From the NCBI GenBank assembly GCA_002070275.1, contig MWCY01000002.1, positions 11,820-75,819 of the forward strand: a stretch of 64,000 nucleotides of DNA, in the 5' to 3' direction. Made by a program: the position numbers and the translations under genes. The number at the start of each line of letters is the position of its first letter. The stretch's first letter is position 1. The notes below the pieces were generated by a model, which did not search any database, was not told where the DNA came from, and saw only the letters and a list, made by a program, of their open reading frames with translations. Positions 27,131-47,864 of the stretch are shown piece after piece. Source of the DNA: Candidatus Hydrogenedentes bacterium ADurb.Bin170. Its GTDB lineage: Bacteria; Hydrogenedentota; Hydrogenedentia; Hydrogenedentales; CAITNO01.

Positions 27131-27280
27131 GGCCGACTCTCCTGAACTTGAATATTTCCGGATCTGAAAAATGAAACGATCCGGTATTTTGGTGCTCATA
27201 TCACTGCTGTGGTATTGTGTAGCTTCTTCCTTTTTTTACGCTGCCATTTTAACAGGAACCTCACGCTGAAAGGAAAAAGC

Positions 27281-29061: not shown

Positions 29062-29218
29062 AAAGCCGCCAATTGGCAAGTTTTTTTCTTCCTGTGTTTT
29101 CAGAATTCTGAAGCACTTGACGTGTCGTCCTGTTTGCAAACAATCTCCGGTGCGGATACAATGACTCCGGAATTTTTAGCGCCCGCCGCACACCGGAATC
29201 TACTTTTTGAGAGTGTTT

Positions 29219-32200
29219 ATGAATAAAAAGAACCTTGCAATCGCTGTGAAATTGTGTGTTGTCGCCGCCCTGTTCCTGCTTATTTTTCAGCCGGAGCTTT
29301 TCGGACTGAAAGGACTCTTCGGAGACGTTGCGCCACTGGATGTCTGGAACGCCCTGAAAGAGGCCAGCAGTACGGGTCCCGCTACTTTTCTTTTTTTTAT
29401 GAGCTGTGCAGTGATCGTAAAACTGGCAGGCATCTTCTCAGGCATTATTCGATGGCGGCTGCTGCTGGCAGGACAGGGACTCAAAATCCCGTTCACCTAT
29501 CTGACCTATCAGTGGTTCATGGGGCGGGCGATCGGGCTGTTTCTTCCCGGCACGCTCGGGCTCGACGGCTTCCGGCTGATTGAATCATCCCGATACACCC
29601 GGGAAGTAGTCAAATGCACGACAGTGATCGCTGTTGAAAAACTGACGGGCATCATTGCGCTGGCGCTCCTGGTCTTTCTGACTTTTCCCCTTGGCTTCAA
29701 ATATTTGAACATCAATGTGGCAATGCTTGCGATCATTATGCTCTGCCTTCTCGGCGGTGTCATTTGCAGCCTTCTGCTGCTGCTCAATCCCCGGGTCATT
29801 CAGGTGATCGCAGCGGTGATGCCTGTGCCAAACGTTGCCAGAGGACTGATCAATAAGCTGGGCAGGGCGGCAACAGCATACAGCAACTCCAGAAGAACCC
29901 TGCTCACAGCACTCTTTTTCGGCGTACTGGTGCATCTGGGCTCCTGCTCCAAATATTTTTTCACATTCATGGCAATCCGTGCCGCCCATGTGTCCCCGGC
30001 AGATATCTTTTTTGTGAGCCCTCTTATGATCACCGCATCTGTGCTTGCCTTCACTATTTCAGGGCTGGGAGTGCGTGAAATGGCATTCGGTCTTGTGCTT
30101 GGCGGCAGCGCCGGGCATGCCGTCGCCATTCTGGGCGGTCATCTGGGGTTGTGGGCGGGTGAAATTCTTCCCTTCATTCTCAGCGTACCGCTGCTGCTTT
30201 TCAGCGGGCGACCCAGCAGAGATAAGTTGGAGGAAGACCGCGCCTATGTGGAGCAGAACCTTGCCGACCGCCAGCAGGCACTGCAGCCTCTTCTGAGCGA
30301 AGAAGAAAAAACGAAATACAGAAAACGACTTCTGGAAATGCTTTTCTGCGGCACGGCGGCGGGACTGCTGGCAGGCGCCGTCATTGCGCTTCTGGAAGGC
30401 GCCTGGATTCTTTTTCATCTGCAGGGACTGCAGGAGTGGTATTTTCTCGGATGGGGCACTGCCGCCTACAGCCTGCTCTTTGCCGGGCTGGGCTGCGGAA
30501 TTGCCGGTGGACTCATGTTCATCTGCCTTCTTTTTGACCGTTTCATGCCCTGGCCTGTCACAACAGCACTAATCTATACAGGGACAGCGGCACTTGGCGG
30601 TCTGGTAATCGGTATGTTCCGCTATCAGCGGGATATTCTTGCGGGGCATGCAATGACACCTCGCGATCTTATCATGGTTGCCGCTTTTGTTCTGGGAACG
30701 GCACTGATTCTGGGAATTCTTGCGTTTCTGAAGTCGGAATTCTGCCGCCGTTTTCTGAGTCTGCAGGTGCCCGGGTTCATGGCTGTATGTTTTCTTTCCT
30801 GGCTGCTGCTGATCACCTGCGCTTTCGCTGCCGGAGCATTTGCGGCACCTCAAAAGGAAAGTGCCCCGATGCTGACCGGAACCCCCGCAAAGGGACCGAA
30901 TATCATCCTTTGTGCCGCCGATGCGATGCGCGCTGATTGCCTGCCTTTTTACAACCCGTCAATAACCACGGAAACGCCCAATCTCACAGCGCTGACGAAG
31001 GATGCCATCCTTTTTAAACGCGCTTATGCACAGGCGCCCTGGACCAAGCCGTCCTTTGCGACCATGTTTACAGGCCTGTATCCCGGCGCTCATGGTGCCG
31101 CCAGCAAAACAGCGTCCCTCTCTGCCGATGCACCTGTTGTGGCAGGTCTTCTGCAGGCGGGCGGCTATTTCACCCGGGGCTTCTCCAACAATCCGAACAC
31201 CACCGCTCTCTTCGGCTTTGACCGCGGCTTTTCCCAGTTTACAGACCTCAAACCTGACCCTCTTTTTGGTGCACCTCAGTCCGCCATGCATCTGTCTCTT
31301 TACGGGTTGATGCGCAAAGTTTTTCTTACTGCTGAAGGCAAACTGCGGGGGGGCAGACTGCGCATCACCGACTTTTATCAGCCCGCCGAAGTCGTTACTG
31401 ACACTGCTCTTGGCTGGATAGACAGCCGGAAAGAAGAAGGAGACCGCCCCTTCTATTTATATCTGCATTACATGGATACCCACGACCCGTTCATGGATCA
31501 TGCCGATCCGGGGAAAGGCTATGCCCGTGCACGTATGGAACACCCGGACCCCGACAGATATCTGGAACCCATGCGCCAGGCCTATCTGTCGGAAATCGAA
31601 TATATGGATAAACACCTCGGACGCTTCTTCGACGGTCTGAAAGTGCGGAATCTCTACGACAACACGCTTATCATCTTTGTTTCCGATCACGGCGAGGAGT
31701 TTTTTGATCATCAGGGCTGGTGGCATGGACAGACCCTGTATGAAGAACTGCTGCATGTTCCCCTGATCATGAAATTCCCCGGAAATACTCAGGGCGGTAC
31801 TGTTACTGATGATCTGGCACGGCTTGTGGATCTTGCGCCTACTATCCTGCAGACGGCCGGGCTTCCTCTCTGTCCCGATATGTCCGGACTACCGCTCACC
31901 GATAAGACCGGTACCCCCGCCAACAGCAGTATCCGGTATAGTTATGCGGAAAATGATTTTGAAGGAAACAGACTTCAGGCACTGCGTACCGGAGAACGGG
32001 CAGTCATTCAGGCAAATGAAAACAACACGCGCGGGCTTGCTCCTGTGGAATTTTATAATATGGTTCAGGATCCGCTGCAGCAGCATAATCTGGCAGAACG
32101 GTCTGATGCGGCAGAAGAAGTGAATAGCCTGCTCGAAGTGATCGTCCAGTTCATGAAGGCTATAGCCGACAAGGCACCGCTGCCTTCAGGCGAAACAGCC

Positions 32201-32248
32201 ATTGACCCCCAATTGCAGCAGCAGCTCGAAGCACTCGGTTACATGTAA
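29219..32248 (+). CDS. Fusion of lysyl-PG-synthase-type TM (flippase-like, UPF0104) domain with C-terminal sulfatase-family / alkaline-phosphatase-superfamily phosphotransferase-like domain (Thr at nucleophile position)
   Basis: N-terminal approximately 330 aa polytopic region resembling the MprF/LPG_synthase_TM flippase-like domain. Further TM helices follow. C-terminal approximately 450 aa sulfatase fold (PNIILCAADAMRADCLPFYN..TPNLTALTKDAILFKRAYAQAPWTKPSFATMFTGLYPGAHG..FVSDHGEEF..). Thr occupies the Cys(FGly) position of CxPxR, as in LtaS/EptA/OpgB-type transferases. ATG 29219; the ORF TTG is at 29207. Confidence 0.6.
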   Translation: MNKKNLAIAVKLCVVAALFLLIFQPELFGLKGLFGDVAPLDVWNALKEASSTGPATFLFFMSCAVIVKLAGIFSGIIRWRLLLAGQGLKIPFTYLTYQWFMGRAIGLFLPGTLGLDGFRLIESSRYTREVVKCTTVIAVEKLTGIIALALLVFLTFPLGFKYLNINVAMLAIIMLCLLGGVICSLLLLLNPRVIQVIAAVMPVPNVARGLINKLGRAATAYSNSRRTLLTALFFGVLVHLGSCSKYFFTFMAIRAAHVSPADIFFVSPLMITASVLAFTISGLGVREMAFGLVLGGSAGHAVAILGGHLGLWAGEILPFILSVPLLLFSGRPSRDKLEEDRAYVEQNLADRQQALQPLLSEEEKTKYRKRLLEMLFCGTAAGLLAGAVIALLEGAWILFHLQGLQEWYFLGWGTAAYSLLFAGLGCGIAGGLMFICLLFDRFMPWPVTTALIYTGTAALGGLVIGMFRYQRDILAGHAMTPRDLIMVAAFVLGTALILGILAFLKSEFCRRFLSLQVPGFMAVCFLSWLLLITCAFAAGAFAAPQKESAPMLTGTPAKGPNIILCAADAMRADCLPFYNPSITTETPNLTALTKDAILFKRAYAQAPWTKPSFATMFTGLYPGAHGAASKTASLSADAPVVAGLLQAGGYFTRGFSNNPNTTALFGFDRGFSQFTDLKPDPLFGAPQSAMHLSLYGLMRKVFLTAEGKLRGGRLRITDFYQPAEVVTDTALGWIDSRKEEGDRPFYLYLHYMDTHDPFMDHADPGKGYARARMEHPDPDRYLEPMRQAYLSEIEYMDKHLGRFFDGLKVRNLYDNTLIIFVSDHGEEFFDHQGWWHGQTLYEELLHVPLIMKFPGNTQGGTVTDDLARLVDLAPTILQTAGLPLCPDMSGLPLTDKTGTPANSSIRYSYAENDFEGNRLQALRTGERAVIQANENNTRGLAPVEFYNMVQDPLQQHNLAERSDAAEEVNSLLEVIVQFMKAIADKAPLPSGETAIDPQLQQQLEALGYM

Positions 32249-34909: not shown

Positions 34910-34941
34910 GGAGTTACTTGGATAATTTTGGAAATTTAGGG
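34899..34941 (+). promoter_or_regulatory. Putative MraZ operator: five TGG/GGG repeats with exact 10-bp phasing
   Basis: TGG at 34899, 34909, 34919, 34929 and GGG at 34939 (TGGtttaaaa/TGGagttact/TGGataattt/TGGaaattta/GGG). The array spans the -10 element and 5'UTR of mraZ. Confidence 0.45.
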
Positions 34942-34950
34942 AAGAAGCGC

Positions 34951-35433
34951 ATGTACTACGGAGAATCTTTTACAATCCTTGACGGTAAGAAGCGGCTGGC
35001 TATCCCGGCGACGTTTCGCCGTGTGATGGAACAGGAAGATCATCGTGTCTGGTACATCACCAGGGGGTATGATCGTGCGCTCTTTATGTTTCGTGAAGAG
35101 ACCTGGGAGCAGCTGCTTAAAAATCTTCCCAATGCGCCACTCGATCCTCAGGTTCTTTCATTCCGTCGTTTTTTTCTGGGTGCCTCTATTCGGGTTGAGC
35201 CGGATGCGCAATGGCGCATTGCTCTGAGCGACGGTCTGAAAGATTTCGCACTGCTTGAGCGGGAATGTGCGATTCTCGGTGTTGAAGATCACCTTGAGAT
35301 TTGGAATAAGTCGCGGTGGACAGAATACAGCTTACAAAATATGGATGACTATAAAGTACGGGCTAGCGAGATTTTTTCGGGTCACAGCGCATCGACAAAC
35401 ATTCAGGAGGAAGCGAAACATGTTAACGATTGA
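34951..35433 (+). CDS. mraZ: Transcriptional regulator MraZ
   Basis: MYYGESFTILDGKKRLAIPATFRRVM.. and second repeat (..RVEPDAQWRIALSDGLKDFA..) match the duplicated MraZ fold. Start at internal ATG 34951. The ORF ATG 34918 would sit at the predicted TSS. Confidence 0.85.
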   Translation: MYYGESFTILDGKKRLAIPATFRRVMEQEDHRVWYITRGYDRALFMFREETWEQLLKNLPNAPLDPQVLSFRRFFLGASIRVEPDAQWRIALSDGLKDFALLERECAILGVEDHLEIWNKSRWTEYSLQNMDDYKVRASEIFSGHSASTNIQEEAKHVND

Positions 35434-35770
35434 TCAACAGACCAAAGATGCAGTGGCAGTGCTGACTGCTTCGGGCGTGCTCGACCAGGCTGAAATTCAC
35501 AAACTCCGTGAGGCCGTTGCCCGCAACATCCGCAAACACCAGTTTCATCTGGTGCTGAATCTGCGGCACGTCGGCATGATTGAATACCCGAGCTTCGGCG
35601 TTTTGCTGGAACTGCTCAGTGAACTCCAGCAGTATGGCGGCGGTCTGAAACTTGCCTGCGCCAATCTCCATACGCAGCGCATGCTGCGTCTCATGGGTCT
35701 CTGCCGGGTTCTCATGTGTTTCGATACGGAAGCGGAGGCAATCCGGCAGTATCAGAAAGAAGCAGCGTAA
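35420..35770 (+). CDS. STAS domain protein (anti-sigma-factor antagonist family)
   Basis: MLTIDQQTKDAVAVLTASGVLDQAEIHKLREAV..HLVLNLRHVGMIEYPSFGVLLEL..GGGLKLACANLHTQRMLRLMGL is SpoIIAA/RsbV-like, with a Ser at the phosphorylation position (EYPSFG). AGGAGG SD 9 nt upstream of ATG 35420. Overlaps the mraZ end by 14 nt. Confidence 0.7.
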   Translation: MLTIDQQTKDAVAVLTASGVLDQAEIHKLREAVARNIRKHQFHLVLNLRHVGMIEYPSFGVLLELLSELQQYGGGLKLACANLHTQRMLRLMGLCRVLMCFDTEAEAIRQYQKEAA

Positions 35771-35816
35771 TCATATGAAGATGCCGGCTGGGCGGCAGCA
35801 GTCGGGAGACAAGCGC

Positions 35817-36761
35817 ATGTCCGATTTCCCCGCTCCTCACGCACCGGTGATGCTTGAAGAGACAATCTCCTTTCTTCAGCTGCGCAGCAGTGGCATTTAT
35901 GTGGATATGACGGCGGGTGCCGGCGGTCATTCGGAACAAATCGCCCGCCATCTGGGTCAAGGACGGCTTATAGCTATTGACCGCGACAAAGAAGCCGTTG
36001 CCCTGACACGCAAGCGGCTGAGCCCCTATCCGGCAGCCACTGTGGTCCGGGCAAATTACAGTGAGTTGAAGACCATTCTGGAGGCGCAGGGATGCCCCGC
36101 TGTTGACGGCATTCTTCTTGATGCCGGTGTTTCGAGCATGCAGATAGACCGGGCGGAACGGGGATTTTCCTATTTGAAAGAGGGCCCGCTGGACATGCGT
36201 ATGGACTCTGATGCGCCTCTTGATGCTGCTGCCTGGCTGCAGTGTGTCAGTCCCCGGGATCTTGAGCAGGTGCTGAAAGAGTTTGGGGATGTCCGGCCTG
36301 TGCGCCGTATTGCACGGCACATCTGCAAGCGCCGTGATCAGGGGCAGCTGAAAAGCACATCAGATCTGGCAGAAGCGATCCGGGATGCATTAAACCATGT
36401 TGTTCCCAATCCTGTAGAGCTTCGCCAGGTGTTTCAGGCCGTCCGCATGGCGGTCAATGACGAGTTGAATCATTTAAAAACCGGACTGGAGCATGGGGCG
36501 GAATCCTTGTCTCCAGGCGGCAGGCTGGTAGTCATTTCTTTTCACAGCGGTGAAGACGGCTTAGTAAAAGAGCTGTTTAAAAGGCTCAGCAGACAGCAGA
36601 CAGAATTGCGTCCGGACGGGCGTATTCTGAAACGTGTTCCAGCCCTGTATAAAACAGTTACTGCCCGTCCTGTCCTGCCAACCCCGGAAGAAATTCAGCG
36701 TAATCCTCGCGCTAAAAGCGCAAAAGTCAGAGTACTGGAGCGGCTTCAATCCGCGGAGTGA
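35817..36761 (+). CDS. rsmH: 16S rRNA (cytosine1402-N4)-methyltransferase
   Basis: HAPVMLEETISFL..GIYVDMTAGAGGHS..IAIDRD..ILLDAGVSSMQID..RGFSY conserved RsmH/MraW blocks. Start chosen at ATG 35817 (GGGAGA upstream). Alternative ATG at 35775. Confidence 0.85.
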   Translation: MSDFPAPHAPVMLEETISFLQLRSSGIYVDMTAGAGGHSEQIARHLGQGRLIAIDRDKEAVALTRKRLSPYPAATVVRANYSELKTILEAQGCPAVDGILLDAGVSSMQIDRAERGFSYLKEGPLDMRMDSDAPLDAAAWLQCVSPRDLEQVLKEFGDVRPVRRIARHICKRRDQGQLKSTSDLAEAIRDALNHVVPNPVELRQVFQAVRMAVNDELNHLKTGLEHGAESLSPGGRLVVISFHSGEDGLVKELFKRLSRQQTELRPDGRILKRVPALYKTVTARPVLPTPEEIQRNPRAKSAKVRVLERLQSAE

Positions 36762-37327
36762 AGGTATTAAGGAGTGAGAAAATGAAGATTTTCTGCAAAG
36801 TCGGTCAAGATCAGAACATTTGGGCATGGATTTTTCGGCTCTTCTGCCTCGCAGGTCTGTTTTCTCTTCTCTTCATTGACGCCTACTTCAATATTCAACG
36901 ACGTAATAATGATTATGAAATCGGGCGGCTGGGCGCCAGGCGGCGCGCACTGGAAGACGAGCTGACACAACAGAACTCGTTGCTGTCACAGGTAAAGCCC
37001 AAAGAATTTATGGAAAAAAAAGCCGAGGAACTGGGATTGCAGAATCCGGACGTGTACCAGTTTCAGGTGGTTCAATATCGTGAAGTCCCCCGAAAAGCGC
37101 CCATTCTCCGGTTGGATAATCTGCAGAGGCCTCTTGAAGGACTGAATCCTCCCGTTAAACGGATAGAGATGGCGAATCGTCCTGAACTGGAAGCAGCACC
37201 TGCTATCCCCGTGCAGACCGTACCGGCTGTTGAAGCCGTTGAACTTAAGACCGTTCCAGCGCCGGCTGAGGTAGAGGATCCGGAGTTGTCTTTCATGTCG
37301 GTCGGTGACATGCTGGCATCATTATAA
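36758..37327 (+). CDS. ftsL: Cell division protein FtsL-like (septum formation initiator family)
   Basis: Position between rsmH and ftsI. Short cytoplasmic N-terminus, single TM (WAWIFRLFCLAGLFSLLFI), coiled-coil-like region (ALEDELTQQNSLLSQV). ATGA overlap with rsmH stop. Confidence 0.5.
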   Translation: MKVLRSEKMKIFCKVGQDQNIWAWIFRLFCLAGLFSLLFIDAYFNIQRRNNDYEIGRLGARRRALEDELTQQNSLLSQVKPKEFMEKKAEELGLQNPDVYQFQVVQYREVPRKAPILRLDNLQRPLEGLNPPVKRIEMANRPELEAAPAIPVQTVPAVEAVELKTVPAPAEVEDPELSFMSVGDMLASL

Positions 37328-37391
37328 ACGGCGGCGGAACGGAGAGAATTGCAGGCTCTGCCGTTCCTGAAAAAAAGGGAGGTACCATCTC

Positions 37392-39605
37392 ATGGCATTT
37401 CTGCGGCGGTTTCCACTGCACCCTGATCCTGATTTAAAACGGAAGGCCATGCAGCAGCATCAGCTACGCGCCTGTTTCGCCGGTGCCGGACTTCTCGTTC
37501 TCGGTACTTTCATTATCGGTATGCTGGTATATTCCAACTTTCATCCTCAGGAAAACCTGGCTTCAGAGGATGAAACACATATCGGGCGTTTTTTCATTAA
37601 AAATCAGCGCGGCGAGATTTTCGACCGCAACGGAACAGTGCTTGCGGTAAACAAGTCAGCACCGACACTGCAGGTCGATCCGCGGAAGGTGGAAGATGCG
37701 GATGCACTTGCAACCTTTCTCAGCAAGCACATTGATATGTCCTGGGAAGATATTTTTGCACGCCTTGCCAAACTGGACGAATCCGGCCAGGTGCGCAAAA
37801 TGAACACCATCAAGCGCTGGATAGAAAAACCTTCCAGAGAAGAACTTGAAAAGATTATTGCTTCCGAACCTTCTCTCTCGCTTCGAGACGAACCCCTGCG
37901 GCACTATCGCTACGGCGACAGCGCAGCGCATCTTTTAGGCTTTGTAAATCGCGCCGGGGAAGCCAGCGAAGGGCTGGAACTGGCCTTTGACAAATATCTG
38001 CACCCGCGCGCCGGAGAAATCCGCGCCAGAACAGACAACGGCAGACAGCTGCTGCCTTCGGGGCTTTTGTCTTATCAGGAGCCTGAAGGGGGAGACAAGG
38101 TACAGATTACTGTAGACATCAACATGCAGCAGACGCTTGAGCGCTGTCTGGACAAACGCATGGAAGAAGTGGGCGCAAAGGCAGCGATGGGCATCCTGAT
38201 GGATCCTCATACGGGCGCCATCTTTGCCCTTGCCAACCGCCCCGCTTTTGATCCGAACCATTACGATCTGTATGACCCTGCACTGCGGAAAAATCGTGTC
38301 GCTCTGGATCGTTTTGAACCGGGCTCTGCTTTCAAAATCGTCGTTTCCTCCGCGGCGCTTGAAAATCATCTCGTCTATCCGGAAGAAATGATTGACTGCG
38401 AGAACGGCGGATTCAATCCTTACGGGCATTATATAAAAGATTTCTACAGGCTGGGCGTAATCCCCTTCTCTTATGCCTTTGCCAAATCCAGCAATGTCGC
38501 CATGATCAAACTGGGCAAACGGCTCGGTCCGGAACGCATGGACGAATGGATTCGCCTTTACGGATTCGGCGAAAAAACGTCCCGTGATTTTAAGCATGAA
38601 AGCACTGGGATTTACCACGCCCGTGAGAAATGGTCTCGTCTGTCCATGGGCTCCCTGCCCATGGGCCAGGAAATTGCCGTAACCTCATTACAACTGGCGC
38701 GTGCCTTTGCGGTGATTGCCAGTGGCGGCCTTCTGGTGGAACCCTATTTTGTTGAACAGGCGGTGAACCGGTACGGGGAGGTGACCTATAAGCATGATCC
38801 CCTTCCACCGAAACGCGTTCTGTCTCCGGACACAGCAAAGACCATGGTGGAACTCTGCCACCAGGTCGTGCTGCATGGCACAGGTACGACCGCAAATATC
38901 CCTGAATTCCGCGTGGGCGGCAAGACCGGCACAGCACAAATGGCAAAAAGCAACGGACGCGGATATGATCCTGATCGTTACACCGCTGTCTTTGCAGGTT
39001 TTGCACCTGTAGCGTCTCCCAGTATTGTGGGTGTCATCGTGGTTCAGGAACCGGCAATCCGTCAGCGCTGGGGCGGCTTTGTCTGCGGGCCTGTTTTCCA
39101 GGAAGTGGTAAAAGATGCGCTAATCCGTCTGGGAACGCCGGAAGATCCCGTCGTTAACCCGGACAACCCCCGTATGGAACCCGTCAAAAAGACAGCACCG
39201 AAAGAGCAGGCACCTGCGCAGAGCAAAGACAAAGAGAGAACACTTATTGCCGATCTTATCGCCGAAGAAGATGCCGACACCGTCTCTCCTCCGCCTGCAC
39301 CGGAAGACATCGATGAAAACTTTCAGGCATTGATCACACCGCTTGACGGCATTTCTCTGGTTGCGCGGCCCATGGCTGCCAAAGGTGATGAGAAAGCAAT
39401 GCCTGATCTGACGGGAAAAACAAAGTCTCAGGTCAGAATGGAACTGCAGCGGATGGGTATTGTTCTTGATGCACAGGGTGTCGGCTGGGCCGTGGAACAG
39501 GAATTTGCTCCGGGATTATCGGTAGGCGATGTGAAGGTCTGCAGTATCCGCTTTTCCGACAAAATGCCGCCCATGGAAAAAGGGAACCCCGATGACGCAG
39601 GATGA
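37392..39605 (+). CDS. ftsI: Peptidoglycan D,D-transpeptidase FtsI (class B PBP) with C-terminal PASTA domain
   Basis: TM anchor, dimerisation domain, transpeptidase motifs SAFK (GSAFKIV), SSN (KSSNVAM), KTGT (GGKTGTAQ). C-terminal PASTA-like segment (MPDLTGKTKSQVRMELQRMGIVLD). Confidence 0.85.
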   Translation: MAFLRRFPLHPDPDLKRKAMQQHQLRACFAGAGLLVLGTFIIGMLVYSNFHPQENLASEDETHIGRFFIKNQRGEIFDRNGTVLAVNKSAPTLQVDPRKVEDADALATFLSKHIDMSWEDIFARLAKLDESGQVRKMNTIKRWIEKPSREELEKIIASEPSLSLRDEPLRHYRYGDSAAHLLGFVNRAGEASEGLELAFDKYLHPRAGEIRARTDNGRQLLPSGLLSYQEPEGGDKVQITVDINMQQTLERCLDKRMEEVGAKAAMGILMDPHTGAIFALANRPAFDPNHYDLYDPALRKNRVALDRFEPGSAFKIVVSSAALENHLVYPEEMIDCENGGFNPYGHYIKDFYRLGVIPFSYAFAKSSNVAMIKLGKRLGPERMDEWIRLYGFGEKTSRDFKHESTGIYHAREKWSRLSMGSLPMGQEIAVTSLQLARAFAVIASGGLLVEPYFVEQAVNRYGEVTYKHDPLPPKRVLSPDTAKTMVELCHQVVLHGTGTTANIPEFRVGGKTGTAQMAKSNGRGYDPDRYTAVFAGFAPVASPSIVGVIVVQEPAIRQRWGGFVCGPVFQEVVKDALIRLGTPEDPVVNPDNPRMEPVKKTAPKEQAPAQSKDKERTLIADLIAEEDADTVSPPPAPEDIDENFQALITPLDGISLVARPMAAKGDEKAMPDLTGKTKSQVRMELQRMGIVLDAQGVGWAVEQEFAPGLSVGDVKVCSIRFSDKMPPMEKGNPDDAG

Positions 39606-41082
39606 ACTGAGCACACTGCTGGATATTCCGCCGATTCACCGGGAATTGGAAATCAATTCTGTTACGGAAGATTCTAGAAAAGTGCATCCCTGCTCGTTGT
39701 TTATTGCAAGAGCGGGGCAGAAATCTGACGGACATTCCTATATGGAACAGGCTGTTGCCAACGGTGCAGCAGCCGTTCTGGGTAATCGTAAAGACATCGC
39801 TGACGCTTTCGGGAAACCCTACATTTTTTATGAGCATCCCCGACGGGCAGCAGGACTCATTGCGCATGCTCTGGAAGGCAACCCTTCCGAAAATCTGTGT
39901 GTGATCGGCGTTACGGGCACTAACGGAAAAACAAGCACCTGCTGCCTGATACAGCAGATCCTGAATCATTCCGGATTTTTGTGCGCCAACTTCGGCACAC
40001 TCGGATACAGCCTGCCGGAAGAAGAAGTGCCCGCAGCACATACGACCCCTTTTGGCGAAGACCTGGCTCAACTTTTTTCCCGGGCAAAACAGCAGGGCTG
40101 CACACATGTCGTCATGGAAGTCAGCTCTCACGCCCTGGAGCAGGAACGTGTCGCAGGCATTCATTTCAATATAGGCGCCTTTACGAACCTCACACAGGAC
40201 CATCTGGACTACCATCAGTCCATGGACGCTTATCTTGAAGCCAAATTGCTGCTGTTTCACAAACTGCATGCTGTTTTTCAGGATCCGCAGGGCGCCCGTC
40301 CCTGCTTTTCAGCCGTCAACCGGGAAGACCCTTCGGCAGCGCGTTTTATTGAGGCTTTTCCTGAAGCCTGCATCTCCTATGGAAAAGGCGGAACCATTCA
40401 TGCAAAAGAGGTGGTTCTCGATATTCACGGCGCACAATTTACACTGGTCACCCCCGAAGGCTCTGCAGCGGTCACGCTTTCTCTCGTCGGCAGGCATAAT
40501 GTGCAGAATGCACTGTGCGCTGCAGCGATCTGTCACGGAGCAGGCATACCGCTGAAAGCAATAGCCGCCGGACTTGCTTCCCTGACATCGATCCCGGGGC
40601 GCATGGAAGCTGTCGGCGAAGGTTTTCCTTTTCAGGTTGTCGTCGATTACGCTCACACCGATGACGGATTGCGCAACGCACTCAACGCCGCCCGGGCTGT
40701 CTGCAAGAGAAAAGTCATTGTCGTATTCGGCTGCGGAGGCGACAGGGATAAAAGCAAACGTCCGAAAATGGGTGCTGTTGCGGCGGAGCTCGCCGACTTG
40801 GCCATTATCACCTCGGACAACCCCCGAACAGAAGATCCTTTCCTGATCCTGCTGGATGTGGAGATTGGACTGCAGAAACGGCAGAAATATAAAGGCGATG
40901 ACTATCTGGTCATTGAATCCCGTCAGGAAGCAATAGAAAAAGCTGTATCAATGGCAGCACCGGGCGATCTTATACTGATCGCCGGCAAGGGTCATGAAGA
41001 TTACCAGATTATCGGAACCGAGCGGCGACATTTTGACGACCGGGAAGCAGCGCGCGCCGCTCTGAAAGCTCTTTCATTATGA
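39592..41082 (+). CDS. murE: UDP-N-acetylmuramoyl-L-alanyl-D-glutamate--2,6-diaminopimelate ligase
   Basis: GVTGTNGKTST P-loop, DNPRTEDP motif, Mur ligase three-domain pattern. Position in dcw order. Confidence 0.9.
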   Translation: MTQDELSTLLDIPPIHRELEINSVTEDSRKVHPCSLFIARAGQKSDGHSYMEQAVANGAAAVLGNRKDIADAFGKPYIFYEHPRRAAGLIAHALEGNPSENLCVIGVTGTNGKTSTCCLIQQILNHSGFLCANFGTLGYSLPEEEVPAAHTTPFGEDLAQLFSRAKQQGCTHVVMEVSSHALEQERVAGIHFNIGAFTNLTQDHLDYHQSMDAYLEAKLLLFHKLHAVFQDPQGARPCFSAVNREDPSAARFIEAFPEACISYGKGGTIHAKEVVLDIHGAQFTLVTPEGSAAVTLSLVGRHNVQNALCAAAICHGAGIPLKAIAAGLASLTSIPGRMEAVGEGFPFQVVVDYAHTDDGLRNALNAARAVCKRKVIVVFGCGGDRDKSKRPKMGAVAAELADLAIITSDNPRTEDPFLILLDVEIGLQKRQKYKGDDYLVIESRQEAIEKAVSMAAPGDLILIAGKGHEDYQIIGTERRHFDDREAARAALKALSL

Positions 41083-42437
41083 GCATGCATTATACACTGC
41101 AGGAAGCCGGTGCCATGATGGGGCTTTCTTTATCGGGAAGCATGCAGGACGCTCCGGTGATCACAGGCGTGTCCACAGATACCCGGACACTGCAGAAAGG
41201 CGACCTCTTTTTCGCACTGAATGGAGAAAACTTCCGCGGGGATGATTTCGTGGCGGCTGCTTTTCAAAAAGGCGCTGTTGCGGCTGTAACAGACGGATCG
41301 GGCTATAAAGATCCTTTTTTTCAGACATCCAACGCACTGGAAGCACTGCAGCGGCTTGCAGGCGCACATAGAGACCGCTGCCCCGCACGCATTATCGGCA
41401 TCACAGGCTCCTGCGGAAAAACTACGGCAAAAGACATGCTCGCCTCTGTACTCTCTTCTGAATATGTGGTGGAAAAAACACAAGGCAACCTTAACAACGA
41501 TATCGGATGCCCTCTTTCGCTGCTGCGCCTGTCTCAGGCAACTCACTTCGGCATTATAGAAATGGGCGCCAACCATATCGGCGAAATCCGGGCGCTCTGC
41601 GGGCTTGCAAAGCCTGATGAGGGCGTAGTTACACTTGTGGCGCCTGCCCATCTTGAAGGCTTCGGATCACTGGAAGGCGTGGCAGCAGCCAAAGCGGAGC
41701 TGATGGAAGCACTTCCTGAAAAGGGATGTTTTTATGTGAATATGGATGACCCGCTCTGCAGAGCGATGGGCGAACGTTTTCGGGGAGAAACGGTACGTTT
41801 CGGTACGGGCGGGGATGTGTATCTGAAAGAACTTCGGTTTGATGATGAGGGTGAAATGGTTCTGAAGGTGCACCCTGTGGGAACACTGCGTCTTCCGCTC
41901 CGCATTCGTGCCCATGTCTCTCATGTGCTGCTGGCGGTAGCTGCGGGGCTGCGCCATGGCATCATTTCTCTTGAAGCTCCTCTCCGTGACGCCTGTAAAA
42001 AAGCAGCGAGATTCAAAGAAGCCCTTTTTCAGGGCGTGCATGTGCTGGATGACAGTTACAACGCCAACCCGGCAAGCATGAAAGCATCTTTGGAAGCGCT
42101 CCGGGACTATCCCGGGCAGCGCCGCATAGCAGTGCTGGGAGACATGTTTGAACTGGGAAAATCAGCGGAAGCCCTGCATGCGGATATCGGTCGTTTTGCG
42201 GCGTCCCTGTCTATTGACTTCCTTTTATCGCTTGGCGGGTATGGCGGTATCATGGCGGAGGCGGCACATCGGGCAGGGCTGGATCAGGCATTTGCCTGTG
42301 CCAGCCACCAGGAGGCTGCAGCCTGGCTGCAGAATAACACGGCGGCGGGAGATGCGGTTCTGCTCAAAGGCTCCCGGGGCATGAAAATGGAAACAGTATT
42401 TGAGCAGTGGAAAAGTATTGCCCCGGCCGGGCAATAA
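41079..42437 (+). CDS. murF: UDP-N-acetylmuramoyl-tripeptide--D-alanyl-D-alanine ligase
   Basis: GITGSCGKTTAKDM P-loop, Mur ligase family. ATGA overlap with murE. dcw order. Confidence 0.85.
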   Translation: MSMHYTLQEAGAMMGLSLSGSMQDAPVITGVSTDTRTLQKGDLFFALNGENFRGDDFVAAAFQKGAVAAVTDGSGYKDPFFQTSNALEALQRLAGAHRDRCPARIIGITGSCGKTTAKDMLASVLSSEYVVEKTQGNLNNDIGCPLSLLRLSQATHFGIIEMGANHIGEIRALCGLAKPDEGVVTLVAPAHLEGFGSLEGVAAAKAELMEALPEKGCFYVNMDDPLCRAMGERFRGETVRFGTGGDVYLKELRFDDEGEMVLKVHPVGTLRLPLRIRAHVSHVLLAVAAGLRHGIISLEAPLRDACKKAARFKEALFQGVHVLDDSYNANPASMKASLEALRDYPGQRRIAVLGDMFELGKSAEALHADIGRFAASLSIDFLLSLGGYGGIMAEAAHRAGLDQAFACASHQEAAAWLQNNTAAGDAVLLKGSRGMKMETVFEQWKSIAPAGQ

Positions 42438-42440
42438 CGG

Positions 42441-43934
42441 GTGGATTTCATGGCATATTGGCTGTCTGTTCTTCTGAAAGATGAGGTGGGCTTCACCAAC
42501 GTATTAAGCTACCACAGCGTCCGTGCGGGCGGTGCCGCTTTCACCGCTTTTTTTCTTTCCATCCTTTTAGGTCCGGCAATTATCCGGAGGCTGCGCCAGC
42601 TGAAAATCGGACAGTATATCAGAGAAGAGCATGTCGAAAGCCTGCACGAACTTCATAAAGGAAAAGCAGGAACACCCACCATGGGTGGCCTGATGATCAT
42701 CGTTTCCACCCTTGCCGCTCTGCTTCTGTGGGGCAGACTGTCGAACCGCCTTCTATGGGTTTCCATGATTATCCTCCTGGTCATGGGCGCTTTGGGGTTT
42801 ATGGATGATTTCATCAAACTGAAACGCAAACATAATGCAGGCTTGAGCGCCCGGGCAAAATTCGCCGGTCAGATTCTGACGGGTCTGCTTCTGGGTATTT
42901 ATCTGGTCAATAACCCCATTACTGTCAGCGAATCCTATGTGCTGCATCGGGACGTCATCAACTGGCCTCTTCTGGAATCGATGCTGGCAGGCGCACACGA
43001 GCGAAGCCAGACCCCGGATGTAAAAAAAATCTGCAGTATGTTGTCCCCGGAGTGCAGGAGCATCATCAGAGGAAATGTAAATGAAGCACAGATCACCGAT
43101 GAAGAACAGCAGACAGTGCTGAAAGAACTCAATCTGGCACTTCGCAGCACAGAGCTCTACGAGGAAGCACTCTGGCACGACATTGTAAAGAACCCGGAAG
43201 CAAGACGGCTCCTCCAGTCTTCCCCTGAGAAGATGAGTGAACGGGATCTGATCCGCTTTAACCGGCTGTTACTGGAGCAGAGTTTCTCCGGAATGATTGC
43301 GGAAAGCGTTCCGAACCTTCATACCAAGCTGGGGATTCCGGGATTCAAAGAACTATTTATCCCCCTGGGCTTCTTTTACATCTTCTTCGTCACACTTGTC
43401 ATGGTCAGCATAACCAACGCCGTCAATCTTACCGACGGGCTGGACGGGCTTGCCGCCGGCGTTTCCATCATTTCCATTCTTGCCTATGCAGCCATCGCCT
43501 ATATCATCAGCCGGGCAGACTGGTCACGCTATCTTTTCCTAACCTATGTTCCCGAGGCAAGCGAACTCTTCGTCTTCGGGGCGGCACTTCTTGGCTCCGG
43601 CCTGGGTTTTCTCTGGTTTAACGGACATCCCGCAGAAGTCTTCATGGGCGACACCGGCTCTCTGGCATTGGGCGGAGCCATCGGTGCGCTGGCGCTGCTG
43701 ACCAAACAGGAACTGCTGCTTCCCGTTGTTGCCGGTCTTTTTGTTCTGGAAGCAGCAAGCGTCGTCATTCAGGTATTTTCATTTAAACTGACAGGGAAAC
43801 GTGTTTTCCGCATGTCGCCGCTGCATCATCATTTTGAATTGTGCGGCTGGAAGGAAACCAAAGTAACCCTGCGTTTCTGGATTCTTGCGTTTCTGTTTGC
43901 GCTTCTCAGTCTGGGCGCATTAAAGCTTCGTTGA
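42441..43934 (+). CDS. mraY: Phospho-N-acetylmuramoyl-pentapeptide transferase with approximately 135-aa loop insertion
   Basis: Conserved MraY blocks (GTPTMGG, MDDFIKL, NAVNLTDGLDGLA, GDTGSLALGGA, MSPLHHHFE). Protein is 497 aa versus approximately 360 typical, with the extra segment between the TM4-like and TM5-like helices. Confidence 0.9.
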   Translation: MDFMAYWLSVLLKDEVGFTNVLSYHSVRAGGAAFTAFFLSILLGPAIIRRLRQLKIGQYIREEHVESLHELHKGKAGTPTMGGLMIIVSTLAALLLWGRLSNRLLWVSMIILLVMGALGFMDDFIKLKRKHNAGLSARAKFAGQILTGLLLGIYLVNNPITVSESYVLHRDVINWPLLESMLAGAHERSQTPDVKKICSMLSPECRSIIRGNVNEAQITDEEQQTVLKELNLALRSTELYEEALWHDIVKNPEARRLLQSSPEKMSERDLIRFNRLLLEQSFSGMIAESVPNLHTKLGIPGFKELFIPLGFFYIFFVTLVMVSITNAVNLTDGLDGLAAGVSIISILAYAAIAYIISRADWSRYLFLTYVPEASELFVFGAALLGSGLGFLWFNGHPAEVFMGDTGSLALGGAIGALALLTKQELLLPVVAGLFVLEAASVVIQVFSFKLTGKRVFRMSPLHHHFELCGWKETKVTLRFWILAFLFALLSLGALKLR

Positions 43935-43950
43935 CAAACACCGGGAAAAT

Positions 43951-45324
43951 ATGGATCTGACAGGTAAACATATCCTTCTAGTGGGGCTGGGCCGCTCTTC
44001 GGTGGCAGCGGCGCAGCTCATTATGGAAAAGGGAGGGATGCCTTTTATCAGCGAGCGGAACGACGGACAATCGCTGGAAAACTGGCTGGAGATCTGTCGC
44101 ACCCGGGGAATTCCTGTGGAAACGGCCGGGCATACATCTCCCCTCTTTCAAACCGCCGATCTCGTTGTAATCAATCCGGGTGTCCCCTATAGCGCCCCCT
44201 GCCTGGACATACCGAAAGAAAAAGGCATACCCGTCGTCGGAGAATTGGAATTCGCCTCCTGGTTCAATCACTCCACCGTTATTGCCGTCACCGGAACCAA
44301 TGGAAAAACCACCGCTACCAGTCTCCTTTACACCATGATCCGCACCTGTGGGTATAGTGTCGCTTTGGCAGGCAACACACATACCGCATGGTCGGAAGTT
44401 ACTGCAAAAGAAGAACAACCTGAATATACCGTGCTGGAAGTAAGCAGTTATCAGATGGAAACGGCAGATACATTTCACCCGAAAGTTGCCGTCATTCTCA
44501 ATCTTACCCCGGATCATCTGGGCAGGCATGGAACCATGGAATGCTATGGCGCAACAAAAGCACGTATATTTCAACGCATGCAGTCAGGTGACACAGTCAT
44601 TCTAAATAAAGATTACGCCGCTTTACGCGCCTTGCCTCTTCCTTTTCAGGCAGAAACAGTCTGGTTCGGAAAAGCAAGGGATGGCGATAAAACGGGTTGG
44701 AGCTATGATACCGCCCACTTCTATCAGGACGGCGAAATTGCCGCCGATGCAAAAGACAGTCCACTGCCGGGACTGCATAATAAAGAAAATATTACTGCCG
44801 TGCTTGCTGCCGCTCATGCACTGGGACTGGACTGGGGCGGAGTTTTACAGGGACTGCGGCAGTTTGCAGGTGTTGAGCACCGCATTGAATATGTCGCTTC
44901 CATCAACGGGATCGCATTTTTCAACGATTCAAAAGCCACCAATATAGACAGCCTCCGGGTGGCGCTGGAAAGCTTTGTGCAGCCGGTGGTTCTGATTGCG
45001 GGAGGAGAAGGAAAAGGCAGCAGTTATGAACCGCTCCGTTCTCTTATCCGTGACCATGTCAGTACCCTGATAACTATTGGCGAGGAAGCGCCGGCTCTTG
45101 AAGCATGCTTTCAAAAAGACGTTTTCATTTGCCGGGGAACAACCATGAAAGACGCCGTTTACAAGGCATATACGGCGGCTTCACCCGGCAGTGTTGTCCT
45201 CCTCTCCCCTGCCTGCGCCAGTTTTGACTGGTACAGCAATTATGAGGAGCGGGGCGGTGATTTCAAAAACTGCGTTCATGCGCTTAAAGAAGATCTGCAT
45301 ACAGGCGAGGAGAAAGGAAAATGA
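43951..45324 (+). CDS. murD: UDP-N-acetylmuramoylalanine--D-glutamate ligase
   Basis: N-terminal Rossmann (ILLVGLGRS), VIAVTGTNGKTTATSLL P-loop, Mur ligase C-domain. dcw order. Confidence 0.9.
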   Translation: MDLTGKHILLVGLGRSSVAAAQLIMEKGGMPFISERNDGQSLENWLEICRTRGIPVETAGHTSPLFQTADLVVINPGVPYSAPCLDIPKEKGIPVVGELEFASWFNHSTVIAVTGTNGKTTATSLLYTMIRTCGYSVALAGNTHTAWSEVTAKEEQPEYTVLEVSSYQMETADTFHPKVAVILNLTPDHLGRHGTMECYGATKARIFQRMQSGDTVILNKDYAALRALPLPFQAETVWFGKARDGDKTGWSYDTAHFYQDGEIAADAKDSPLPGLHNKENITAVLAAAHALGLDWGGVLQGLRQFAGVEHRIEYVASINGIAFFNDSKATNIDSLRVALESFVQPVVLIAGGEGKGSSYEPLRSLIRDHVSTLITIGEEAPALEACFQKDVFICRGTTMKDAVYKAYTAASPGSVVLLSPACASFDWYSNYEERGGDFKNCVHALKEDLHTGEEKGK

Positions 45325-46496
45325 AAAAAGAAACCAATACACTGATCATGGCTGTACTGGCGCTGGTTCTGCTGGGCACACTGATGATGTACAGTATTGA
45401 TGCCGTGCGCGGGCCCAAATCCATGATTCTCTATAAACATCTGGCGTTTCTCGGCTTAGGGCTGATCGGTTTTTTCTTCACAATGATACTTGATTACCAC
45501 GTGCTCGGAAGTCCGGCGGTTCGGAAAGCATTTCTGATTGGCACGCTGATTCTCCTTGCGTGCACTTTTATTCCCGGTCTTCGGCTGAGCATGGGCGGCG
45601 CTTATCGGTGGATCGGATGGAAACAGCTGAGTTTTCAGCCTGCTGAACTGGCACGTTTCACCCTTGTACTCATGCTCGCTGTCCGATTATCTAAACAGCA
45701 GGATAATATGAGCTATTGGACAACCAGCCTTGTAAAGCCGGGATTTTATCTCGGGCTTTTCGCCGGGATAGTTGTGCTGCAAAAGGATCTCGGAATTCCT
45801 GTCGTCATGTCCGTTGCCACGTTCATCATTATATGGACTGCCGGCGCCCGCATTGCCCACCTGGGTCTTGCAGGTGCGGTAGGTATCACCGCAATTATCC
45901 CGCTTATTGCCATGGAAGGGTACAGAGCGACCCGAATTAAATCATTTATGGATCCCTGGGCAGCACGGGATAGTCACGGCTATCAATTAATTCAATCGCT
46001 CTCTTCTTTCTATCAGGGAGGTGTCTGGGGGCGCGGTGTAGGTTTCGGAGAGCAGAAACTCGGTTATCTCCCGGCTGCACATACAGATTTTATCTTTGCC
46101 ATGATCGGTGAAGAACTGGGGCTGGTGGGAACCATTGTGGTAGTGCTGCTATTTACAGCCATTCTCATTGCGGGCATTCGGACTGTGGTGCGGGCGCCTG
46201 ATCTGTTCGGGTCTCTTCTGGCTGTCGGAATTACGACGCTCATTGTCTTTCAGGCCTTCTTCGTCATGTTGGTTAACCTTGGGTGGCTGCCGACCAAAGG
46301 GCTTCCTCTCCCCTTCGTAAGCTATGGCGGCAGCGCCCTGATGACCAATCTGTGGATGGCAGGCGTGCTGATCAACATTGCTTCTCAGGCAAGTGAAAAG
46401 GAAAAAACGGCGAGAAGCAGTGTTTTTACTCATTCACGACTGAAATACCTGTTCCGCATTTTCCTTCCTAAAAAACCGGCGACAGTACGTATCTGA
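45321..46496 (+). CDS. ftsW: SEDS family peptidoglycan glycosyltransferase / lipid II flippase FtsW
   Basis: 10-TM SEDS pattern (..TDFIFAMIGEELG..LPTKGLPLPFVSYGGSA). ATGA overlap with murD. Position after murD. Confidence 0.85.
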   Translation: MKKETNTLIMAVLALVLLGTLMMYSIDAVRGPKSMILYKHLAFLGLGLIGFFFTMILDYHVLGSPAVRKAFLIGTLILLACTFIPGLRLSMGGAYRWIGWKQLSFQPAELARFTLVLMLAVRLSKQQDNMSYWTTSLVKPGFYLGLFAGIVVLQKDLGIPVVMSVATFIIIWTAGARIAHLGLAGAVGITAIIPLIAMEGYRATRIKSFMDPWAARDSHGYQLIQSLSSFYQGGVWGRGVGFGEQKLGYLPAAHTDFIFAMIGEELGLVGTIVVVLLFTAILIAGIRTVVRAPDLFGSLLAVGITTLIVFQAFFVMLVNLGWLPTKGLPLPFVSYGGSALMTNLWMAGVLINIASQASEKEKTARSSVFTHSRLKYLFRIFLPKKPATVRI

Positions 46497-46529: not shown

Positions 46530-47864
46530 TCAGACATGCGACTCAGCAAAGCATGCTGCGTCCCTCATTCGGTTCAGCGCCTCCACGATCGCATCCGCCT
46601 CTTCAAAACCATAGGAAAGGCGCAGCTGCCGCATTCCGGCATCCTTGAGGCTTCCCCCGGGATGTACACAGAATTCTCCCGGGATATAAACGACCCGCGG
46701 ATAAGGATCTCCGGAAGGACCGTCATATTTTTCAATGCCTGTGGTTCGGGCAAGATAGCGGAAAAAAGGGGACGTACTGTCGGTGCGGATGTTTTTAAAA
46801 GTCAGATAATAGTAGAAACCGGCTGTACCGCCGCAAACTTCTTCCAGCCAGGGGTGAAGCTTCTCCCGGATTGCCTGTCCGACAATCTCGCTTTTTGCTC
46901 TGTAGCCTGCCTTCACACGGGCCACTTGATCGTGCATATAACGACACAGCATCACCGCTGCTATTTCCTGATTGAGCAGTGGCGCGCTGAATCCCACATC
47001 GCTGGTTTTTTGTACAAGCGCCTGCATCAGAACGCCGGGAGCGCCAAGCATAAACCCGATGCGCATGGCAGGAGCCAGCACTTTCGATAAAGTGCCGATT
47101 TCATACACAGGTGCATCCGGAGTATCGACCAACGCTGAGCGGGGCGGCTCCGCCTCCGGGTCGTGGATCAGCCATTCATAGGCCTGATCAAAAAAGACCG
47201 GACAGAGACGACCCAGCCGCGCTGACCACTCTTTTGCCAGCTGTGCAAGCCCCCGGCGATAGGCATTGCACAACACGTTCCCGCTCGGATTATTCACAGT
47301 CACCACGTAGAAAAAAGAAAGCCTTTGTGCCTGATCACCCAGCGATTCCAGTTTTCGCCGGACTGATGCCGGGTTAAGCCCCTCTTTCTCTTCCGGCACT
47401 GTAATCACCTGAAACCCCTTGCGCTCCAGATGATTGCAGTAGATGTAATACATGGGATCAGCAGTGATGACAATGCCCGGCTCAAAAATATCTGCCAGCG
47501 CTTCCAGAATGCTCGTGGCACCGCTCGGGCCGATGACCACCTCCTGTGCTGACATCACTTCTTCAGTCATCCCGCCAATGGCTTCCTCCACGTAATAATC
47601 ACGCAACGCCTGAATCAGACCGGGAGCACCCTGTGGCCCGCCGTAATTAAAGGCCTGTCGGAAGTCCTGCGGGCAGGAAGCAATCTCTTTCACCACCTCA
47701 GCCAGCAGCTCTGTCGGAATGGTCTTTTCATTCACATAACCCACCCCGAGGTTGATGTCTTTTGCATCCCGAAAATCTGTGGCAAAAGCTGCCATCATGC
47801 GGTTCACCGGCGACGGCTCCACCGATCCTCTGCCATAACTGGAAAAAGAATAGTTCATAATCAT
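46530..47864 (-). CDS. PLP-dependent aminotransferase, class I/II (fold type I)
   Basis: Aminotransferase I/II blocks with the Lys-containing motif TLSKVLAPAMRIGFMLG and ..GPSGATSILEA... Convergent with ftsW. Confidence 0.7.
   Translation of the reverse strand: MIMNYSFSSYGRGSVEPSPVNRMMAAFATDFRDAKDINLGVGYVNEKTIPTELLAEVVKEIASCPQDFRQAFNYGGPQGAPGLIQALRDYYVEEAIGGMTEEVMSAQEVVIGPSGATSILEALADIFEPGIVITADPMYYIYCNHLERKGFQVITVPEEKEGLNPASVRRKLESLGDQAQRLSFFYVVTVNNPSGNVLCNAYRRGLAQLAKEWSARLGRLCPVFFDQAYEWLIHDPEAEPPRSALVDTPDAPVYEIGTLSKVLAPAMRIGFMLGAPGVLMQALVQKTSDVGFSAPLLNQEIAAVMLCRYMHDQVARVKAGYRAKSEIVGQAIREKLHPWLEEVCGGTAGFYYYLTFKNIRTDSTSPFFRYLARTTGIEKYDGPSGDPYPRVVYIPGEFCVHPGGSLKDAGMRQLRLSYGFEEADAIVEALNRMRDAACFAESHV

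Follow-up and report, generated by a model that had tools for sequence, protein, structure and literature searches.

MraY is an essential enzyme and a target of both antibiotics and phage lysis, and it is normally very uniform, with a length of 320-376 residues. Its fold comprises ten transmembrane (TM) helices, with the N- and C-termini on the periplasmic side, together with a periplasmic beta-hairpin (PMC4790310). In the E. coli enzyme, Y21, Y227, and K358 lie at the dimer interface and are implicated in feedback control, and the extracytoplasmic side of this interface has been proposed as the place where flipped lipid II binds and exerts regulation (PMC10914600). Here, we describe the MraY encoded in a 64,000-nucleotide stretch of DNA, termed the window, from Candidatus Hydrogenedentes bacterium ADurb.Bin170. 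Its phylum, Hydrogenedentota, is predicted to be diderm, has the Raetz pathway in >94% of its genomes, and has no cultured member (PMC11406978). The window protein shares its family, motifs, ten-TM fold, beta-hairpin, and division and cell wall (dcw) gene context with canonical MraYs of solved structure from E. coli (8G01/8TLU), A. aeolicus (4J72), Enterocloster bolteae (5JNQ), and Hydrogenivirga (9ZNO). However, at 494 residues it exceeds the canonical size range, and it carries an insert at a site where the solved MraYs have nothing. MraY itself is known; what is new is a MraY variant made by the insertion of a member of an apparently undescribed domain family.

The MraY protein and its insert

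The gene and its parts lie as follows. Residue numbers refer to the 494-residue protein, and phmmer block coordinates follow a 497-residue numbering.

42450..43934, + strand: mraY coding sequence, 494 residues plus stop codon (open reading frame, NCBIfam, phmmer, Foldseek)
42450..42911, + strand: MraY N-terminal core, TM1-TM4 with the cytoplasmic DDxxK motif (aligns to E. coli MraY 3-152)
42912..43319, + strand: insert, residues 155-290, 136 residues (gap between two aligned blocks in phmmer)
42930..43310, + strand: core of the ~125-residue six-helix domain, residues 161-287 (homologous to an unannotated family)
43320..43931, + strand: MraY C-terminal core, with the periplasmic beta-hairpin, TM5-TM10, NxxNxxDGxDG loop, D401, and HHH motif

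The open reading frame (ORF) is uninterrupted from an alternative GTG start at 42441 to 43934. The likely start is the ATG at 42450, because homologues have 494 residues and begin with M.YYL and because a GGTGG Shine-Dalgarno-like motif precedes this codon. The protein scores 359.8 bits against NCBIfam TIGR00445, the mraY equivalog model (cut-off 192.05), in two stretches with the insert between them; Pfam matches comprise Glycos_transf_4, again in two stretches (E=1.9e-31), and MraY_sig1. Searching all PDB sequences with phmmer retrieves E. coli MraY (8g01, E=2.7e-86) and A. aeolicus MraY (4j72, E=1e-81). In Foldseek, the AlphaFold2 model of the full-length protein matches MraY structures only (E=1e-14, target-normalised TM-score 0.75-0.81), with 24 MraY chains matched at E<=1e-8 and target-normalised TM-scores of 0.70-0.81.

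The catalytic and Mg-binding motifs are complete (DDxxK, NxxNxxDGxDG, an Asp equivalent to E. coli D267, and the HHH loop). The residues concerned, D119, D120, K123, N323, N326, D329, G330, D332, G333, D401, and H459-H461, are invariant across 56 relatives, which bears out an earlier note made from the letters alone (the sequence-only reading), in which the canonical motifs were described as intact. The dimer-interface residues Y21, Y227, and K358 of E. coli MraY correspond to Y21, Y361, and K492, which are invariant in MraYs of the window type. By its sequence, then, the window protein is a genuine, essential MraY, the predicted lipid I synthase, of a Hydrogenedentota bacterium.

The alignment to E. 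coli MraY (8g01) falls into two blocks, in which query residues 6-157 correspond to E. coli 3-152 and query residues 294-497 correspond, without gaps, to E. coli 157-360. The A. aeolicus enzyme (4j72) is likewise aligned in two blocks around the insert. At the junction of TM4 and the periplasmic beta-hairpin, ~136 residues stand in place of a turn of four to six residues, and the strands of the hairpin follow directly, at residues 293-295 and 303-305 (DSSP of the model). The sequence-only reading had reported an insertion of ~135 residues in the TM4-TM5 loop. The 136 residues found here have no counterpart in the E. coli, A. aeolicus, or Enterocloster MraY, the peptide strings that it quoted do occur, and the start that it gave, 42930, is the start of the domain core that is homologous to other members of the family.

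The insert had also been described as hydrophilic, helix-prone, and periplasmic. It is acidic (15 K+R, 21 D+E), is predicted to be helical, and contains no hydrophobic stretch; its peak 19-residue Kyte-Doolittle mean is 0.62, as compared to >=1.5 for TM helices. Since the loops that carry DDxxK, ahead of TM4, and NxxNxxDGxDG, following TM5, have to be cytoplasmic and the insert has no membrane segment, the known topology of MraY assigns the insert to the periplasm, consistent with the solved structures (PMC4790310).

Several motifs are kept among the MraY inserts, namely, NPITVS, RDVxDW, RIW, LN, LY, LWP, E, RxNRLLLE..P, and PNLHTK[VL]G, of which NPITVS and PNLHTK[VL]G are flanking linkers conserved across the MraY copies. 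In the window sublineage, the Trp of RIW is replaced by Cys; in the window insert, the Pro of RLNRLLLE..P (P129 in at least 90% of MraY copies) is replaced by Ser. The Cys in place of the RIW Trp lies within 43020-43060 (residues ~191-203; KKICSMLSPECRS), and a second Cys follows seven residues further. Both are present in the closest relative (QKICSLLSDECHK), and a periplasmic disulfide between them is conceivable.

The predicted structure is of high confidence over most of the insert. With 56 homologues, the AlphaFold2 model of the full-length protein has a predicted template modelling score (pTM) of 0.81, and the insert block has predicted local distance difference test (pLDDT) values of 85-92 apart from two loops. 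The insert alone, modeled with 42 homologues, forms six helices with a pLDDT of 85 and a pTM of 0.80. Because single beta-bridge residues occur at residues 169 and 280/283 in both models (an assignment from DSSP only), we infer that the entry and exit of the chain lie side by side in the domain. Such adjacent termini would account for the tolerance of the domain in loops. The high pTM and the conserved linkers suggest that the domain docks onto the periplasmic face in one set orientation and is not floppy. A Foldseek search with the insert model gave no match (best E=2.0 in PDB and 0.9 in BFVD), and the best hit when PDB sequences were searched with a profile was a MarR regulator (E=0.019 over 28 residues).

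The insert is a constant feature of this group of MraYs. The best 120 relatives are 58-99% identical to the window protein and, save two fragments, 485-513 residues long. An insert of 123-150 residues is found at the same site in all 119 homologues aligned (90%-identity clusters) and measures 131 residues in 80 of them; no insert-less MraY occurs among these 119, which answers the question of conservation among relatives that the sequence-only reading had left to be checked. All named organisms among the best 120 relatives are Candidatus Hydrogenedentes/Hydrogenedentota, and the insert is absent from the four solved MraYs and from the 321-position NCBIfam model, in keeping with the earlier suggestion of a lineage-specific feature.

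Insert-bearing MraYs were also found at 13 loci when a single genome from each GTDB species was scanned; the scan was limited by its pattern (a 7-sequence alignment), so that the number is no measure of the complete distribution in the phylum. The closest of these loci is from a Candidatus Hydrogenedens metagenome-assembled genome (MAG), with an insert identity of 73%. Nine loci are labeled Hydrogenedentota, Hydrogenedentales, or Hydrogenedens, and four are labeled "uncultured Nitrospirales". The MurF and MurD proteins of the latter four are 48-56% identical to those of the window, the same as for the Hydrogenedentota-labeled loci, which places all of them in the same clade. Hydrogenedentota-type MraYs are thus present in MAGs deposited as "uncultured Nitrospirales" or "Nitrospiraceae bacterium" (L003, L006, L008, and L012, and protein P0132), and these labels are probably placeholders or errors.

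The insert changes faster than the protein that holds it. Identities are 29-43% for the insert, 57-71% for the N-terminal core, 76-88% for the C-terminal core, and 45-56% for MurF/MurD, and the commonest residue of a column has a mean frequency of 0.48, 0.76, and 0.86 in the insert and the N- and C-terminal cores, respectively; the insert evolves at ~2x the rate of the MraY core. Pairwise identities of insert and core are correlated (Pearson r=0.58, 7,021 pairs). The content of guanine plus cytosine is 0.515 in the insert versus 0.519 in the core, and no direct or inverted repeats are present at the boundaries of the window insert. Recent horizontal acquisition of the insert was considered and rejected, given that there is no compositional signal and that insert identity tracks core identity. 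One ancient insertion, followed by vertical inheritance, would be the simplest reading of these patterns.

A domain family and its hosts

The appendage is not peculiar to MraY, which could not be seen from the letters alone: the insert is one copy of a widespread domain that is carried by many other proteins. A profile of 42 MraY inserts was searched with HMMER against all representative proteins, an exhaustive search of 1.84 billion sequences on which the family counts rest. At E<=1e-3 the profile matched 3,055 proteins, of which 960 reached E<=1e-10 and 17 reached E<=1e-30. The majority of the best 150 of these 3,055 matches are non-MraY proteins, and the non-MraY matches cover profile positions ~10-136, corresponding to the domain without the MraY-specific linkers (nucleotides 42930-43310). 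A reciprocal profile of 152 non-MraY copies recovered 14 MraY inserts, that of the window at E=1e-30 and the 13 others at E=1e-18 to 1e-36, and tblastn with single family members matched window positions 42951-43310 at E=1e-9 to 1e-16. Word-indexed protein searching was unreliable for so short and divergent a domain: the insert alone gave no matches despite the presence of a 99%-identical full-length protein, and a general domain profile gave two, a result superseded by the exhaustive HMMER search.

The family consensus reads SLL...DILDWP.L..KL......PSPGKRIW.LLP...LN.IL.RRDFY...L..EA..LL......LS..EV.RLNRLLLEAAFP.EIAKS, and the shared signature motifs are D[IV]xDW ... (PSPGK)RIW ... LN..L ... 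[FL]Y ... E..LL ... RLNRLLLE..P. This signature is represented in the window insert by RDVINW, KIC, LNLAL, LY, and RFNRLLLEQSF, and polar residues (D, N, R, and E) are conserved across the family. Copies in MraY and elsewhere are of the same size and share a placement in loops or at the periplasmic ends of envelope proteins. However, those in MraY group apart, with linkers specific to MraY (NPITVS..., ...PNLHTKVG), and they are more acidic on average, with a net charge of -4 as compared to about 0 in the rest of the family.

No described family accounts for these sequences. No Pfam or NCBIfam model matches the array proteins that carry up to eight to ten copies of the domain, and 30 isolated domains gave only scattered single Pfam matches, all at E>0.006. 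Weak multi-copy sums of DUF3349, PDZ_4, and Tic22 on array proteins were rejected: they lie at or below the gathering score, no stretch passes alone, and the matches are not reproduced with single domains. LysM, SPOR, PASTA, PG_binding_1, and OmpA-like domains are likewise small extracytoplasmic modules found on many envelope proteins, a likeness that is a functional analogy only. None of LysM, SPOR, PASTA, PG_binding_1, or OmpA matched the insert or 30 family members in Pfam at E<=1, and, unlike these modules, the present domain typically lies inside host domains and occurs also in cytoplasmic ATPases. Searches of the literature on MraY insertions, on Hydrogenedentes MraY or peptidoglycan, and on the motif strings turned up no account of either the insert or the domain family. 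On the evidence of these searches, the MraY insert is one copy of a large family that is absent from Pfam, NCBIfam, and PDB.

Organism names were available for four family proteins, which derive from Hydrogenedentes (P0197), Planctomycetota (P0144), an "Eremiobacteraeota" MAG (P0157), and "Nitrospiraceae". The MraY-like proteins among the best 150 of the 3,055 profile matches comprise just one full-length cluster (P0132) and five apparent fragments, from which the architecture of MraY plus domain appears restricted to one clade.

The hosts of the domain are diverse. Some proteins consist of the domain alone (144-174 residues, e.g., P0164 and P0178), and others are tandem arrays, such as P0121 (1,398 residues), with eight matches by local hmmsearch and ten stretches in the library search, truncated copies included. 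ABC-2 permeases (ABC2_membrane_2 and _3) make up 14 of the 82 proteins scanned (e.g., P0171 and P0180), and in a family of ~765-residue ABC-2 permeases the domain follows TM1. Further hosts among the 82 are LptC (four), LptA/LptD_N-like proteins (two at E<=1e-4), and HlyD/CusB membrane-fusion proteins (three); other secreted proteins of ~300 residues match LptA/LptD_N at weak E values. The domain is also carried by LptF/G (P0191), TatC (P0153), MFS, SNF, Na/Pi cotransporter, LPG_synthase_TM, and PMT_2 glycosyltransferase proteins, by ABC importer permeases (BPD_transp_1) and solute-binding proteins (SBP_bac_5), and by a BamB-like propeller (two copies) and an LRR protein. A signal peptide, an anchor, or a polytopic topology is found in 99 of 150 representatives. 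In hosts of known topology, the domain lies in a periplasmic loop, as in the LptF/G loop, between TM1 and TM2 of MFS proteins, in the first loop of ABC-2, Opp-type, and GT-C proteins, and in proteins with signal peptides.

The domain is not confined to the periplasm. P0124 has one copy within a cytoplasmic ABC ATPase, in the interval from Walker A to the Q-loop, and two more between the ATPase halves. In P0260, a STAND NTPase holds the domain between its Walker A and Walker B motifs, and in P0264 it lies within an FGE-sulfatase domain. The gene for P0124 adjoins that for P0156, a permease-like protein with two copies, in one Opp-like operon (L017, 7891-13120); there, the copies in P0156 are probably periplasmic, and P0124, a fused double ABC ATPase, holds three copies and a fragment. 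The domain is thus probably present on either side of the membrane within a single transporter. The C-terminal motif of P0124 is duplicated, with LNRLLLEAILA followed after ~20 residues by LNRLLLIACYPDEI.

P0197 (328 residues), from Candidatus Hydrogenedentes, combines a signal peptide with a C-terminal copy of the domain and matches LptA/LptD_N weakly (E=0.0015), and its gene sits between lptC and an lptB-like ABC ATPase gene. By these features it is an LptA-like protein and represents a second envelope machine of the same phylum that bears the domain. At another locus (L014, 3506-4399), the gene order QRPTase-BPL-Pan_kinase-(lptC)-(lptA)-X-ABC ATPase is as in Hydrogenedentes loci L015 and L016. 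The domain is there encoded by a separate 143-residue ORF (P0277) in the same frame as the preceding 150-residue ORF, with one TAA (3956-3958) between them; this arrangement could represent a split fusion, a sequencing error, or read-through.

The dcw cluster and other genes of the window

The mraY gene sits in a dcw cluster with the order mraZ-rsmH-ORF-ftsI-murE-murF-mraY-murD-ftsW, and its murF and murD flanks recur in the 13 related loci. The neighbouring features are as follows.

34918..41082, + strand: upstream part of the dcw cluster, with mraZ, rsmH, a 189-residue ORF, an ftsI-like penicillin-binding protein gene (737 residues), and murE (NCBIfam; Pfam for the penicillin-binding protein)
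41079..42437, + strand: murF, immediately upstream of mraY (NCBIfam TIGR01143, E=1.6e-114)
43951..45324, + strand: murD, immediately downstream of mraY (NCBIfam TIGR01087, E=2e-118)
45321-46496: ftsW, after murD (NCBIfam TIGR02614, E=9.6e-95)

The cluster ends at ftsW. The next gene (46530-47864, minus strand) encodes an aminotransferase or MocR-like protein, and murG, murC, murB, ddl, and ftsQAZ do not adjoin the cluster. The 189-residue ORF (36758-37327) lies between rsmH and ftsI, the place usual for ftsL, and has no Pfam or NCBIfam match. In the ftsI-like class B penicillin-binding protein (37392-39605, 737 residues), the Pfam domains stop at residue 573. Its C-terminus (39108-39605) consists of a Pro/Glu/Ala/Lys-rich linker followed by a ~60-residue segment (MPDLTGKTKSQVRMELQRMGIVLDAQG...VKVCSIRFS) that is PASTA-like by eye. 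This tail segment has no Pfam match at E<=1e-4, and the NCBIfam PBP2X model extends to residue 719.

Large proteins of envelope type encoded elsewhere in the window without the domain include a fusion of LPG_synthase_TM and sulfatase (29207-32248, 1,013 residues), an HZS_alpha/PD40 protein (23801-27199, 1,131 residues), and a GH3 glycosidase with LysM repeats (338-2902, 853 residues).

Possible roles of the inserted domain

The account that we favour, tentatively, is that this MraY contains an anciently inserted, autonomously folding domain that acts as an added contact or self-association surface. A domain of ~125 residues and six helices would have been inserted once, anciently, at the junction of TM4 and the beta-hairpin, leaving the catalytic and extracytoplasmic dimer-interface residues of MraY unaltered. 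The domain would then serve as a surface for protein-protein contact or self-association, a step that is a guess and the weakest of the proposal. The MraY dimer could be stabilised or capped by such a surface, or MraY could be linked through it to other machines bearing the module; a part in catalysis or in substrate binding is less likely. A generic role is likelier because the same module occurs on many oligomeric envelope machines and not just on those related to lipid II. Its presence on LptA, LptC, LptF/G, TatC, permeases, and cytoplasmic ATPases argues against a role tailored to lipid I synthesis and points to either a generic role (interaction or oligomerisation) or a tolerated passenger. 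The further suggestions of the sequence-only reading, of contact with the divisome or a regulatory effect, are conjectural, as is any change in sensitivity to antibiotics or lysis proteins.

Several observations weigh against a contact surface. No second copy of the domain lies within the 64-kb window, despite the presence there of host-type proteins (PMT_2, LPG_synthase_TM, and FGE-sulfatase). The domain is thus not ubiquitous in the envelope of this organism. The domain also occurs in clearly cytoplasmic settings, an ABC ATPase and a STAND NTPase, and is therefore not a dedicated periplasmic module. The mechanism through a partner or through self-association is itself a guess, and the promiscuity of the domain fits a functionless, tolerated insertion equally well.

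That last possibility, a robustly folding, insertable module with adjacent termini and no function related to MraY, is less probable than a contact surface and the foremost of its rivals. In such a scenario, a rare in-frame recombination in the ancestor of the phylum would have introduced the domain, whose persistence would reflect its harmlessness and the rarity or destabilising effect of a clean deletion. The occurrence of the domain within unrelated hosts on either side of the membrane (ABC ATPase, STAND NTPase, FGE-sulfatase, BamB-like propeller, and transporter loops) is consistent with this scenario, as are the degenerate partial copies and duplicated C-terminal motifs in array proteins and the roughly twofold faster evolution of the insert relative to the MraY core. 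However, no loss is seen in 119 diverged homologues and the length is tightly conserved; these observations, together with the family-wide conserved polar residues, the conserved linkers NPITVS and PNLHTK[VL]G, and a confident model with a fixed orientation (pTM 0.81), suggest that the domain is integrated with its host protein. A more specific alternative, and an unlikely one, is that the domain is a periplasmic sensor or regulator of MraY at the site of lipid II feedback. In its favour, the domain is assigned to the periplasm and seems to be docked; flipped lipid II is proposed to regulate MraY from the extracytoplasmic side of the dimer interface (PMC10914600), the residues of which are conserved in this protein; and invariant N, R, E, and aromatic residues of the domain could form a ligand site. 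Against it, hosts of the domain include cytoplasmic ATPases and proteins that have no connection with lipid II, and no similarity of the domain to a known ligand-binding fold emerged.

We consider it highly improbable that the insert is a fossil copy of in-frame selfish DNA, i.e., of a mobile element that encodes a benign domain. The analogy is with the Rickettsia palindromic elements, reportedly described by Ogata et al. in 2000 as selfish in-frame insertions in coding genes. Like those elements, the present domain is an extra in-frame segment in many unrelated and even essential proteins, usually in surface loops. The number of unrelated host genes, the insertion within host domains, the multiple and partial copies per gene, and the duplicated LNRLLLE..YP ends in P0122 and P0124 would all fit such an origin. 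Unlike those elements, however, it is a folded domain of 125 residues with old, divergent copies and no palindromic or terminal repeats, and its occupancy of the MraY site is fixed across the members of the phylum that were sampled. Among five copies from a single operon, identity is just 27-37% at the protein level and 43-55% at the DNA level; neither 23 kb of L017 nor the 64-kb window yielded a copy that is out of frame or between genes, and no terminal or palindromic repeats flank the window insert. There is also no presence/absence polymorphism in 119 MraY orthologues, and the composition of the insert equals that of the host gene. An artefact (frameshift, misassembly, or extra TM helices) or a protein-splicing element is hardly credible. 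The unusual length is all that suggests an artefact, and ~135 residues is the size of a mini-intein; the same architecture, however, recurs in more than 100 independent assemblies. The ORF is continuous and more than 100 independent homologues have the same length, which excludes a frameshift or assembly artefact. An intein was rejected because the insert has no intein or HINT match in Pfam at E<=1 and its fold is all-alpha rather than that of the beta-rich HINT domain, and extra TM helices that would flip the topology were rejected on the basis of the highest insert hydropathy, 0.62.

The favoured account, a contact or self-association surface, can be extended to a broader and more doubtful proposal, in which a loop-insertion domain that binds itself or a common partner would link envelope machines across Hydrogenedentota, Planctomycetota, and other poorly studied phyla while capping the periplasmic regulatory face of MraY. 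The machines so linked would be MraY, LptA/LptC/LptFG, TatC, ABC-2 exporters, and membrane-fusion proteins.

The family comprises at least ~3,000 sequence clusters, and naming it could annotate thousands of "hypothetical" regions in metagenomes. Candidate reasons for its insertability are that it is an adaptor, an oligomerisation handle, or a benign passenger, and so unusually tolerant a domain might serve as an insertion scaffold in protein engineering. For MraY itself, a lineage of phylum rank with a folded domain on the periplasmic face of the enzyme represents a natural experiment on that face. If the domain does link envelope machines, this would amount to a principle, specific to the lineage, by which the cell envelope is organised.

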